IMG/VR virus record: IMGVR_UViG_2778261065_000031
Coordinates: 1 to 36,521 of that record
Direction: 5' to 3' (one strand)
DNA length: 36,521 bases
Source of the DNA: a virus
Taxonomy: Duplodnaviria > Heunggongvirae > Uroviricota > Caudoviricetes
Shown: in pieces, positions 18,290 to 22,197 of the stretch
Numbering within the stretch: the first letter of the stretch is position 1
Layout: the number at the start of each line of letters is the position of its first letter
The notes under the pieces: model-generated
Seen by the model: only the letters and a program-made list of their open reading frames with translations
The model's database searches: none
What the model was told of the DNA's origin: nothing
Program-made: the position numbers and the translations under genes

Positions 18290-18318
18290 AATTTACCCAA
18301 CTTTATTCAAAAAGTCAA
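18290..18318 (-). promoter_or_regulatory. Late promoter pR' (-35 TTGACT, 17-bp spacer, -10 TAAATT) with adjacent qut region
   Basis: Minus strand TTGACTTTTTGAATAAAGTTGGGTAAATTTGACTCAACGATGG matches lambda pR' from memory. Confidence 0.65.
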
Positions 18319-18360
18319 TATTATGCCGTTAATTTGTTGCCATCCGTGGCAATCATGCTG

Positions 18361-18984
18361 CTAACGTGTGACCGCATTCAAAATGTTGTCTGCGATTGAC
18401 TCTTCTTTGTGGCATTGCACCACCAGAGCGTCATACAGCGGCTTAACAGTGCGTGACCAGGTGGGTTGGGTAAGATTTGGGATTAGCATCGTCACAGCGC
18501 GATATGCGGCGCTTGCTGGCATCCTTGAATAGCCGACACCTTTGCATCTTCCGCATTCTTTCTCAACAACTCTCCCCCACTGCTCTGTTTTTGCTATATC
18601 AACCGCACGGCCTGTACCGTGACAATCTCTGCATCTTGCGCCCGGCGTCGCGGCACTACGGCAATAATCCGCATAAGCGAATGTTGCGAGCACTTGCAGT
18701 ACCTTTGCCTTAGTATTTCCTTCAAGCTTTGCCACACCACGGTATTTCCCCGATACCTTGTGTGCAAATTGCATCAGATAGTTGATAGCCTTTTGTTTGT
18801 CGTTCTGGCTGAGTTCATGCTTACCGCAGAATGCAGCCATTCCGAATCCGGCTTGTGATTGCGCCATCCCCATAGCAGCCATCACATCAGTACCGGAAAG
18901 AGAGTCAGAAGCCGTGGCCCGTGGTGAGTCGCTCATCATCGGGCTTTTTGGCGAATGAAATTTAGCTACGCTTTCGAGTCTCAT
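18361..18984 (-). CDS. Q: Late-gene antiterminator Q
   Basis: 207 aa; essentially identical to lambda Q (MRLESVAKFHSPKSPMMSDSPRATASDSLSGTDVMAAMG). Confidence 0.97.
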   Translation of the reverse strand: MRLESVAKFHSPKSPMMSDSPRATASDSLSGTDVMAAMGMAQSQAGFGMAAFCGKHELSQNDKQKAINYLMQFAHKVSGKYRGVAKLEGNTKAKVLQVLATFAYADYCRSAATPGARCRDCHGTGRAVDIAKTEQWGRVVEKECGRCKGVGYSRMPASAAYRAVTMLIPNLTQPTWSRTVKPLYDALVVQCHKEESIADNILNAVTR

Positions 18985-19169
18985 CGTCTTCCCCTCTTGC
19001 CCTGTTTGACCATCAGGACGCCGTTAACTATTACATGACGCTCGCCTTTGCTGTCTCGGTTGTACTTGAGCACTGTTCCTCTTGCGCAGGAAAGCATCCT
19101 TGCCACTTCAGTCTGATTGCCTCGTGTCTGGATAAGAAGCTCTGGTATCGTTTGAATTGTGGCGTTCAT
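18981..19169 (-). CDS. ninH: NinH-like small DNA-binding protein
   Basis: 62 aa; GNQTEVARMLSCARGTVLKY resembles lambda NinH; 4-nt overlap with Q. Confidence 0.6.
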   Translation of the reverse strand: MNATIQTIPELLIQTRGNQTEVARMLSCARGTVLKYNRDSKGERHVIVNGVLMVKQGKRGRR

Positions 19170-19528
19170 GCGTTCTCCAGTTCGGTGATTTTTATTCCAA
19201 GCCTTCCGCCTGGTACTTTCACGCCACGAATTACGCGAATGTCATCGAATTGCTCGTCGTCTTCCGCAAATCCGGCGTGGATAAGGGAGTCGAGTAAACC
19301 TTTCAGGATGTTGTCGAGGTCGCGGCGGCGGGAGTCTGGAACGTCTGCGATGACTTTGATGCGGAGTCGTGATTTGGTGAAAATGTCTAACTTAAGTTGG
19401 CGGATGATTTGCTGAACGTCTTTTCGGTATTTCTGGCCTTTATCGCTGATGTAGTATTGGCTTCCCCGTCTTCGCCAGTAGGTGTTCACCGACGGCGGGT
19501 ATGGAAGCACAAACTGATATTCGCTCAT
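19166..19528 (-). CDS. rusA: Holliday junction resolvase RusA
   Basis: 120 aa; PPSVNTYW...PDSRRRDLDNILKGLLDSL matches RusA family. Confidence 0.85.
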   Translation of the reverse strand: MSEYQFVLPYPPSVNTYWRRRGSQYYISDKGQKYRKDVQQIIRQLKLDIFTKSRLRIKVIADVPDSRRRDLDNILKGLLDSLIHAGFAEDDEQFDDIRVIRGVKVPGGRLGIKITELENA

Positions 19529-19815
19529 GACTTAATCTTCCCCTCCTTCAGCAGTATCGCCTGCGTCCTGATCACGCCTTCGAGGTGGTAAAGTCTGGCG
19601 TCTTTGTTGTCGAGATTATGGGTGCGTCGGTCGATCTCCGCGTGGCAGTCACTACAAGCCCATGCACCGATCAGGTCGTCAGGCTTCATTCCCGTTCCGC
19701 AAATTCCAGCCATCCGGTAATGTGCCAGAACTGTAGTTTCAGGATTACCATTGCATACGCCGTAAATACGTACCTGGCATTCTCTGTTGCGCGCTTCTTT
19801 GCGTAGGTTAGCCAT
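19525..19815 (-). CDS. YbcO-like (DUF1364) putative nuclease
   Basis: 96 aa, Cys/His-rich; resembles DLP12 YbcO by recall; nin-region position next to rusA. Confidence 0.55.
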   Translation of the reverse strand: MANLRKEARNRECQVRIYGVCNGNPETTVLAHYRMAGICGTGMKPDDLIGAWACSDCHAEIDRRTHNLDNKDARLYHLEGVIRTQAILLKEGKIKS

Positions 19816-20537
19816 TAAGCAGCCTCCCCGGTTACTTTCAGCATTCCGTTATCGAGCAGCTTTCTGGTCAGCCACTGTTGACCACGCCCGGTGATTTTTG
19901 TGGTGAACGATATCTGTATTCCGTGATTTGTGTTGACCGCTGTTTCTTTCACTGCGAAATAGCCGCGATCCATATATTCCTGCATTGGCACATTGCGCCG
20001 GGAACCTGAAGCAATAAGGATTTTGTGATCGCGCATCCACGCAAACAGTTTGTTTGGACCAATTCCAACAACCTTTGCAAAGTTTCCAATCAAAATTCCG
20101 CTGGCCTCGCCAACGCGATCGGCAAACTCAACTTTAGGTGCGGCAATTGCGAGCTGGTTTTCCAGTTGCATTTTCTGCTCAGCAAGGTCAGCAGCAAGGC
20201 GCAACGCTTCCGGTAGCGTTTTGGGGATATTAACCGCAGCTTCTTCAAGCTCTCGCCAACGGTCAACAAGGCGAGCGGTGAACTCTGGCGACAACTGGGC
20301 AACAACGACAATACTGTCTCGCTTACCTTGTTCGCCCTCGAAGACGTAATGCTCGTACTGAACATTGAACCCTAAGTTATTGATTCTTTCGGAAACCTCA
20401 ATTTGAGGAAGCCGGATAACACCATTTTTAGCCAGCGTTTCGATGGTACGTTTCACATTGTCATGACGCTTACCCACCAACTCAGCGATTTCAATGCTTG
20501 TCATTTTGATGGCATTGCCATTTATTAACTCATTCAT
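19815..20537 (-). CDS. Rha/Roi-family phage regulatory protein
   Basis: 240 aa; N-terminal Rha-like domain and C-terminal KilA-C-like region by recall; resembles HK022 Roi. Confidence 0.6.
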   Translation of the reverse strand: MNELINGNAIKMTSIEIAELVGKRHDNVKRTIETLAKNGVIRLPQIEVSERINNLGFNVQYEHYVFEGEQGKRDSIVVVAQLSPEFTARLVDRWRELEEAAVNIPKTLPEALRLAADLAEQKMQLENQLAIAAPKVEFADRVGEASGILIGNFAKVVGIGPNKLFAWMRDHKILIASGSRRNVPMQEYMDRGYFAVKETAVNTNHGIQISFTTKITGRGQQWLTRKLLDNGMLKVTGEAA

Positions 20538-20742
20538 CGTCTTCTTCCTCGTACATTGAGCTATTCGGATCGCTCATCAGTTCTGCGCAGCAGTGCTCAC
20601 ACACGTGAACTTCCAGCACATGCAGCTTCTGACCGCAGTTAGCGCACGTTAAAGCCCGCTCGACGCTTTGTTGTTCGTAACTTCGATTTGGGTCAATCAC
20701 CTTGTTTTCCTCGCACGATGTCTTAGCCACCGGATATCCCAC
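20530..20742 (-). CDS. ninF: NinF-like zinc-binding protein (5' end uncertain)
   Basis: [39 protein letters not shown] matches lambda NinF; track ORF overlaps NinE 3' end by 46 nt. Confidence 0.75.
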
Positions 20743-20879
20743 AGGTGAGCCGTGTAATTGAAGGTTTTTACGTCAGATTCTTTTGGTATTGGCTTGCGTT
20801 TATTTCTGGAGCGTTTCGTTGGAAGGTATTTGCAGTTTTCGCAGATGATGTCGGTGATGCTTCGTCGCTGTCGTCTCAT
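20697..20879 (-). CDS. ninE: NinE
   Basis: From internal [26 protein letters not shown]...HLWDIRWL matches lambda NinE (60 aa); ATGA overlap with upstream methyltransferase stop. Confidence 0.8.
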
Positions 20880-21403
20880 TCTGCCCTCCTGACGCCCTGC
20901 CCGATCGCCATCAATGCCGCTTTGGATACGGTAGTAAACATCCGTCGAGGACTGATGAACGGTCGCCAAATCAGCAGCATGGAGCCTTTGCTGTTTCCCT
21001 TCTTCTCCAGCCCTGTCGATGGTTCGATAAAATTAATCCGTCCATCAGTGATAATGCGAACTTCGTCGACACTCTCCAGAGCCTTGCTGAACCATCCGAC
21101 TGACATATCCTCTGGCACAAGCATCACTACCGTCTGTCGCTGTTGTATGCACTGCTCAGCGGCTTTTTCCACCCACGGCCTGATATTGCTGTACGGTGGG
21201 TTATTCCAGATTGCACCGTGGCTTACCCACTCAGAATTGAGCGCGTCGTCGGCCTCAGTTAACCAGTGAGCGCACAGAGCATTTTTGTCGCTCGCTGCCG
21301 AATCCAGCCAGAATCCAAACTCAATATCCAGTGCATCAAAAAGCCAAAGCGGCGTTTGCCAGCAGTCCTTGTCGTGTGCTGGCGTATTTGATTTGATAGT
21401 CAT
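20876..21403 (-). CDS. Orphan DNA N6-adenine methyltransferase (phage Dam-like)
   Basis: NPPY catalytic motif ([17 protein letters not shown]); start set at ATG overlapping ninB stop (ATGA); track start is 21430. Confidence 0.75.
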
Positions 21404-21846
21404 GCAGCCTTCCCTTTTCGTTGTGACCATTCATACTCTCGCCGGGAGTCATCACTCCACCGCACGTTGCGCTCTGATCCGAACCAGAACATGATTTCGA
21501 TAAGCTCAGTCATGCTGGCCTTTCGCATTTTGCTGGTACGCACGCCAAGCATGACAACGCCACCGTCGATACCAGGCACACTTCGTTGCTCCAGTTTTTT
21601 GGTCTTAAGCCACAGGGCAGTGAACAGGTCTTTCCAGTCTTCCGGCGCCAGCCGTTGACCATGCCATAGCACCTGACGCGAAACATCGTTCAGCATCGGC
21701 CACATACGGTCATTCTGCGCTTTGCTGCGTTTGGGTTCTCTAACGTGGACTTCGTGAGGTGACTTGTCGTCGATGGGGAGTGAGAGAATGGCGTCTATGG
21801 CGTTATTTCTGATTGCTTCGTTGCGAAGTATGTATATTTGCTTCAT
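21400..21846 (-). CDS. ninB: NinB (Orf-family recombination mediator)
   Basis: 148 aa; SKAQNDRMWPMLNDVSRQVLWHGQRL...RNVRWSDDSRREYEW resembles lambda NinB. Confidence 0.85.
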   Translation of the reverse strand: MKQIYILRNEAIRNNAIDAILSLPIDDKSPHEVHVREPKRSKAQNDRMWPMLNDVSRQVLWHGQRLAPEDWKDLFTALWLKTKKLEQRSVPGIDGGVVMLGVRTSKMRKASMTELIEIMFWFGSERNVRWSDDSRREYEWSQRKGKAA

Positions 21847-22180
21847 CGAAATTCTTCTCTTTAATTCCAGCGGCTCTGATAGCTTTCATCACTGCAATTA
21901 CCGTTTTGTCCTTCCCATCCTCATGCCCCATCGCATAAGCACCTTCTTCACCATCTTTCCAAAAGTCGTCATTCGATTCGGGCCAGTCGATATCCAGTTC
22001 AATAGCTGATCGCGATGCCTGCCACGTTTGCCAGTGGCCTTGAACATCGTCCATCACGTATTGACCACCAATATCACCACTGCCAATTTCATGGTGATTT
22101 TCAGGGTAACGGATAAGGTCTGAAGATTCGCCCCCACGTCGCAACCAACTTTCTTCAAACTGCTTTCTTGATTCGTCCAT
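21803..22180 (-). CDS. Hypothetical acidic protein (125 aa)
   Basis: ORF upstream of ninB, 44-nt overlap; no recognised family. Confidence 0.45.
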   Translation of the reverse strand: MDESRKQFEESWLRRGGESSDLIRYPENHHEIGSGDIGGQYVMDDVQGHWQTWQASRSAIELDIDWPESNDDFWKDGEEGAYAMGHEDGKDKTVIAVMKAIRAAGIKEKNFDEANIHTSQRSNQK

Positions 22181-22197
22181 CGATACTTATCCTCAGT

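Follow-up and report, generated by a model that had tools for sequence, protein, structure and literature searches.

An orphan phage-type Dam methyltransferase, probably GATC-specific, in the nin region of a lambdoid prophage

The stretch of DNA analysed here, referred to as the window, covers positions 1 to 36,521 of the IMG/VR virus record IMGVR_UViG_2778261065_000031 and constitutes an entire lambdoid prophage with its orientation reversed. Its nin region carries a dam gene, an uninterrupted minus-strand open reading frame (ORF) of 175 codons that runs from an ATG at 21403–21401 to a TGA at 20878–20876 and encodes a phage N6-adenine DNA methyltransferase of 175 amino acids. The ORF is a real gene, and one that is already known: it specifies an ordinary small phage Dam, and the cloning and characterisation of a virtually identical copy date from 2001. 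Interest in the locus is biological rather than a matter of annotation, and centers on the use of a second GATC methylase to the phage of a Dam+ host, a long-standing if modest question.

Family membership is well defined. A first-pass annotation of the window, produced by a model from the letters alone, had proposed an N6-adenine DNA methyltransferase with an NPPY motif and suggested a profile search for a methyltransferase fold. That search returned full-length matches to PF05869 (DNA N-6-adenine-methyltransferase, Dam; E=6e-65, 218.4 bits where 28.1 is required, profile positions 1–167 of 169) and to TIGR01712, the NCBIfam equivalog for phage N-6-adenine-methyltransferase (265.9 bits where 97.05 is required, positions 1–165 of 165). 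Among PHROG families, the protein matches phrog_111, DNA methyltransferase. As judged by these profiles, membership in the PF05869/TIGR01712 family is far beyond chance. Substitutions relative to diverged homologues are concentrated at codon position 3 of the dam frame (98 of 150 relative to the Pectobacterium homologue and 96 of 163 relative to that of Edwardsiella), a bias that indicates purifying selection on this reading frame. An upstream in-frame ATG at 21430, nine codons up and within ninB, was considered as an alternative start and rejected because the Pfam and NCBIfam hidden Markov models begin at residues 2–4 of the 175-residue form, because homologues align from the methionine of that form, and because GenBank and RefSeq annotate the corresponding 528-nt gene.

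The motif content agrees with this assignment. In an alignment of 24 homologous sequences (60–100% identity), the catalytic NPPY motif IV, encoded here by the codons AAC CCA CCG TAC at residues 68–71, is invariant in 24/24. Two further conserved segments precede it. In WQTP, T17 and P18 are invariant, and W15 and Q16 are kept in at least 90% of the aligned sequences; the structure model places a helix at residues 19–29. In LDSAAS, L33, D34, and A36 are invariant, and the model shows short strands at residues 32–36. The enzyme thus appears to be compact, with the gamma-class motif order and recognizable candidates for motif X and for motif I, which binds S-adenosylmethionine (AdoMet). The protein has the class I AdoMet-dependent methyltransferase fold, and a discrete target-recognition domain is absent from the model. 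PDB sequence searches with the dam protein and with the 24-sequence profile gave no meaningful match, and the family is taken to be one without a solved structure. By sequence, the protein does not belong to the alpha-class Dam family, which includes the Dam of E. coli (Escherichia coli; M.EcoKDam, the host enzyme) and of T4 as well as DpnM.

The closest characterised relative is M.EcoVT2Dam, encoded by the Shiga toxin 2 (Stx2) phage VT2-Sakai. The two proteins (BAA94133.1 for VT2-Sakai) are identical at 174 of 175 residues, and the sole difference is the last residue, glutamate here and alanine there. The VT2-Sakai record annotates the gene as 'DNA N-6-adenine-methyltransferase; similar to 933W L0094, HP1 Orf13 and T1 M.T1', and VT-2 is also named among the phages with Dam-like genes (PMC7556043). 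A methylome study of STEC (E. coli that produces Shiga toxin) O111 lists M.EcoVT2Dam as an orphan methyltransferase of prophage VT2-Sa with a known 5'-GATC-3' target (PMC6602927), and cites Radlinska & Bujnicki 2001 for the target. According to the first-pass annotation, target specificity could not be read from the sequence. This position proved too cautious, since near-identity to an enzyme reported to be GATC-specific allows specificity to be inferred by way of the literature: the dam product probably forms N6-methyladenine (m6A) at GATC.

The gene lies between ninB upstream and ninE downstream, as expected from the nin-region location proposed earlier, and both boundaries are four-base ATGA overlaps (Table 1). 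The first-pass annotation had tied dam to ninB through the first of these overlaps and did not mention the second. The overlap with ninB stands, but its reading as a special link does not. Five ATGA junctions occur between ninB and Q (ninB/dam, dam/ninE, ybcO/rusA, rusA/ninH, and ninH/Q), together with one overlap of 1 base and one of 8 bases. Such stop/start packing has been described as common to every lambdoid nin region (phage L genome paper, citing Kroger & Hobom 1982). Nor is the overlap peculiar to ninB: in other genera, the gene ahead of the homologue is unrelated. The overlap reflects the mode of gene insertion into these operons and is no sign of a functional partnership with NinB. 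With tight overlaps on either side, dam belongs to one compact translational unit, and its translation may be coupled to that of ninB. The purine-rich GGGAAGG that precedes the dam start is weaker than the AGGAGGG before ninE, and it could let dam initiate independently of ninB.

Table 1. Features of the dam locus, in coordinates of the window.
Feature	Coordinates	Strand	Basis
dam, phage N6-adenine DNA methyltransferase, 175 aa, M.EcoVT2Dam allele	20876..21403	-	PF05869, TIGR01712, phrog_111, 174/175 aa vs BAA94133.1
Catalytic motif IV NPPY (residues 68-71)	21191..21202	-	Direct reading; invariant in alignment
WQTP (residues 15-18), motif-X-like, precedes N-terminal helix	21350..21361	-	Alignment and model; putative motif X
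LDSAAS (residues 33-38), probable AdoMet-binding motif I strand and loop	21290..21307	-	Alignment and model; putative assignment
ATGA junction, ninB stop TGA / dam start ATG	21400..21403	-	Direct reading; same 4-base overlap in VT2-Sakai and RefSeq E. coli
ATGA junction, dam stop TGA / ninE start ATG	20876..20879	-	Direct reading; strong AGGAGGG precedes
Shine-Dalgarno-like purine-rich GGGAAGG, 4 nt before dam ATG, within ninB	21408..21414	-	Direct reading; putative function
ninB, Orf-family recombination mediator, 148 codons, upstream neighbour	21400..21846	-	PF05772 E=1e-48; phrog_72
ninE, downstream neighbour	20697..20879	-	PF05322 E=8e-44
Intrinsic-terminator-like hairpin with T-run, tR2-like position between helicase gene and first small nin-side ORF	22428..22451	-	Consensus scan; putative function

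The surrounding prophage is a mosaic of familiar parts. Across the right-hand 25 kb of the window, matches at about 96% identity cover about 45% for phage IME10, with portal and terminase among the matched genes, and about 43% for HK022. The gene order comprises the lysis genes, Q, NinH, RusA, YbcO, a Rha/KilAC Roi-like protein, NinF, NinE, Dam, and NinB. Replication and the early left arm are represented by a DnaB-like helicase, an O-like initiator, CII, a CI-type repressor, an N-like antiterminator, RecT, Ea22-like proteins, and an integrase. The minus strand also encodes two small conserved proteins in the interval that separates the helicase gene from ninB, one of 125 residues (21803–22180, phrog_343) and one of 68 residues (22198–22404, phrog_1165); the 125-residue ORF and the start of ninB share 44 bases.

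The dam enzyme is solitary. No restriction endonuclease was found among the scanned genes of the window, as the first-pass annotation had claimed for the adjacent genes, and the flanking genes are either standard lambdoid genes or have no nuclease or defence match. None of the dam neighbours matches a PADLOC defence model, and dam itself is best matched by the PADLOC 'oMTase' (orphan methyltransferase) models. The only nearby nucleases are the junction resolvase RusA and a YbcO-like protein, both of which are standard nin-region genes. The latter is annotated as 'putative nuclease YbcO' by Pfam (PF07102) and as 'HNH endonuclease' by phrog_131; its gene (19525–19815, minus strand) has the Roi-like antirepressor gene on one side and rusA on the other, an arrangement shared with DLP12 of E. 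coli K-12. Overall, the reading given by the first-pass annotation is supported as essentially right.

Expression of dam is predicted to be confined to a defined stage of phage development. The hairpin upstream of the small nin-side ORFs is strong, with an 8 bp stem that includes 6 GC pairs, and an N-like antiterminator gene is present at 26675–27016 on the plus strand. No sigma-70-like promoter was found in 18300–25500, against 7.2 expected from shuffles. A tR2-like terminator upstream of dam implies that its expression would need antitermination. Under this scheme, dam would belong to the rightward delayed-early operon, after the tR2-like terminator and before Q. The enzyme would then be made only after infection or induction, with N-type antitermination, and not in the quiescent lysogen.

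Comparison across genomes shows that the gene is common. Of 5426 complete E. coli genomes, 1566 (about 29%) carry the ninB-dam-ninE block, 420 phage records match dam, and near-identical proteins number in the thousands in the protein database. RefSeq E. coli annotation places a 'phage N-6-adenine-methyltransferase' between a 'recombination protein NinB' and a 'NinE family protein'; standard annotation pipelines name the gene correctly. Homologues of 68–80% identity in other genera occupy other slots of the early region. The Pectobacterium homologue is preceded by a DUF1367 gene and followed by ninF, the Edwardsiella homologue lies between an 80-residue ORF upstream and rusA downstream, and the Yersinia homologue ends the early-left operon and adjoins host ATP-binding cassette (ABC) transporter genes. 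A 4-base overlap with an unrelated upstream ORF recurs in the Edwardsiella and Yersinia cases. From this pattern of placement, dam appears to behave as a mobile cargo cassette. At 30–40% identity, matches annotated as Dam extend to many virulent phages of E. coli, Klebsiella, and Shigella and to Pasteurellaceae phages. Public databases also contain fused gene calls that join the dam methylase to NinE, NinB, RusA, or CII domains; the probable cause is gene calling that read through, or shifted frame at, the overlapping ATGA junctions, or else assemblies with recombinant junctions.

Taken together, we consider it probable, at roughly 85%, that dam encodes a phage-type Dam, a GATC-specific orphan allele of M.EcoVT2Dam that tops up host Dam during lytic growth. 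Methylation of GATC in replicating phage DNA is the most likely role. Published work on lambda and P22-like phages has found virion DNA only partly Dam-methylated, as replication outruns the host enzyme. A phage-encoded Dam would supplement a host Dam too slow for phage replication, so that progeny genomes would become fully GATC-methylated. Fully methylated genomes may, in turn, resist nucleases that cleave GATC when it is unmethylated and escape nicking by MutH. The role of phage Dam enzymes within the phage has been described as poorly understood (PMC7556043).

Several observations weigh against this interpretation. Because the host is Dam+ to begin with, the phage gene could confer only a quantitative and not an all-or-none benefit. 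The GATC specificity of M.EcoVT2Dam is taken here from secondary citations. Foldseek matches of the structure model to the PDB are all weak (best E=0.019). Moreover, GATC is about 2-fold depleted in the window, with 77 sites against 142–179 expected under composition and Markov models. The count falls below that of all 100 dinucleotide shuffles of the whole window (1–36521), and a separate expectation of 154 sites agrees with the Markov range, which makes the depletion real. Such depletion is not as complete self-protection predicts, and mosaic exchange of dam could explain it. Enterobacterial phages are known to avoid GATC. CTAG is likewise strongly depleted in the window, at 9 sites against 34.

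Among the alternatives, the one that survives best holds that dam is a relaxed or non-specific adenine methyltransferase, comparable to Hia5, M.EcoGII, or p25 of the Serratia prophage OS31, which would deposit blanket m6A as a broad anti-restriction measure. Non-specific orphan methyltransferases of prophages do exist (PMC3299994; PMC6602927 Table 3; PMC7556043), and the very small size of the enzyme, along with the missing target-recognition domain, would suit such an activity. Yet the Hia5, M.EcoGII, and OS31 types belong to other families; a placement of the Hia5-type enzymes in the same family as dam was considered and rejected, as Hia5 carries DPPY and FxGxG and is Dam/DpnM-like. The GATC target reported for M.EcoVT2Dam (PMC6602927) points the same way. 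In addition, STEC 95NR1 carries two copies of dam and shows no methylated motif beyond those assigned to other enzymes, although dam is probably silent in lysogens. We therefore regard a non-specific activity as unlikely.

A more speculative idea concerns the consequences of high-level expression. At lytic levels, so minimal an enzyme might do more than copy the work of host Dam. It might have relaxed or additional targets, or its position among recombination genes (ninB/orf and rusA) might matter, with saturation of GATC methylation blinding MutH-directed mismatch repair and thereby favouring the homeologous recombination behind the shuffling of lambdoid mosaics. Nothing found here supports either version directly, and we rate the idea, to which the poorly understood role of phage Dam enzymes and the GATC depletion leave some room, as a long shot.

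It is highly improbable that the protein is an RNA methyltransferase acting on rRNA together with a partner subunit, in the manner of the M.EcoPA8orf6770P–PNB-2 holoenzyme of Stx phages. M.EcoPA8orf6770P is an MT-A70 family protein specified by a different gene near the left prophage end, and the same PA phages carry the nin-region dam as a separate gene at about 16–17 kb. The dam protein matches PF05869 alone in Pfam, with no MT-A70 match, and its upstream gene encodes NinB rather than PNB-2. A similarity to PCIF1 is confined to the level of the fold, at 13% identity. The Stx-phage rRNA methyltransferase was accordingly rejected as a candidate identity for this gene, being an MT-A70 protein at another locus.

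Two further explanations carry almost no weight. One would cast dam as the modification enzyme of a restriction-modification system whose nuclease is the YbcO-like/HNH-like protein or RusA. The ybcO gene does lie about 1 kb downstream of dam in the same operon, but DLP12 of E. coli K-12 has YbcO and RusA and lacks dam, and conversely VT2-Sakai, E. coli NS-NP030, and Pectobacterium, Edwardsiella, and Yersinia prophages have dam and lack YbcO. The PADLOC results given above likewise argue against any such pairing, which is hardly credible. The other would take as the true gene a 174-residue plus-strand ORF (20745–21269) antisense to dam and ninE, and can be set aside: although it matches phrog_37455 ('unknown function') along its entire length (E=2e-117), its frame is interrupted by 3–4 stops in the diverged homologues of Pectobacterium and Yersinia, substitutions track codon position 3 of the dam frame, and the dam frame is backed by matches to curated families and by a catalytic motif that is conserved. 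Most likely, phrog_37455 gathers shadow ORFs that were called in error in deposited phage genomes.

The phage Dam described here, probably GATC-specific, can be set against several known systems. M.EcoVT2Dam of VT2-Sakai, also found as L0094 in 933W, is the nearest: the two genes share 97.8% nucleotide identity, the ninB-dam-ninE order with both 4-base overlaps is the same, and M.EcoVT2Dam is likewise an orphan enzyme. Besides the last residue, the carrier differs: the present gene is borne by a non-Stx lambdoid prophage whose morphogenesis genes are IME10-like and whose early region is HK022-like. The Dam proteins of phage T1 and Haemophilus phage HP1 belong to the same PF05869/TIGR01712 family, but their identity to the present protein is only about 30–40%, and their genome contexts (virulent siphoviruses and a P2-like phage) lack any linkage to ninB or ninE. 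M.EcoGV and M.EcoPA8orf6770P are also annotated as 'Dam-like' and also reside on Stx-type lambdoid prophages; they differ in family and in locus, in the need for the partner PNB-2, and in a preference for 16S rRNA. As to position, lambda NinC occupies the same slot directly after ninB with the same 4-base overlap on the ninB stop, but it is unrelated to Dam and annotated as a 3'-phosphoadenosine-5'-phosphosulfate (PAPS) reductase. In DLP12 of E. coli K-12 the slot is empty, with the ninB-like ybcN followed directly by ninE. The presence of NinC in lambda and the empty slot in DLP12 thus identify the site after ninB as a mosaic cargo position, filled in this prophage by dam.
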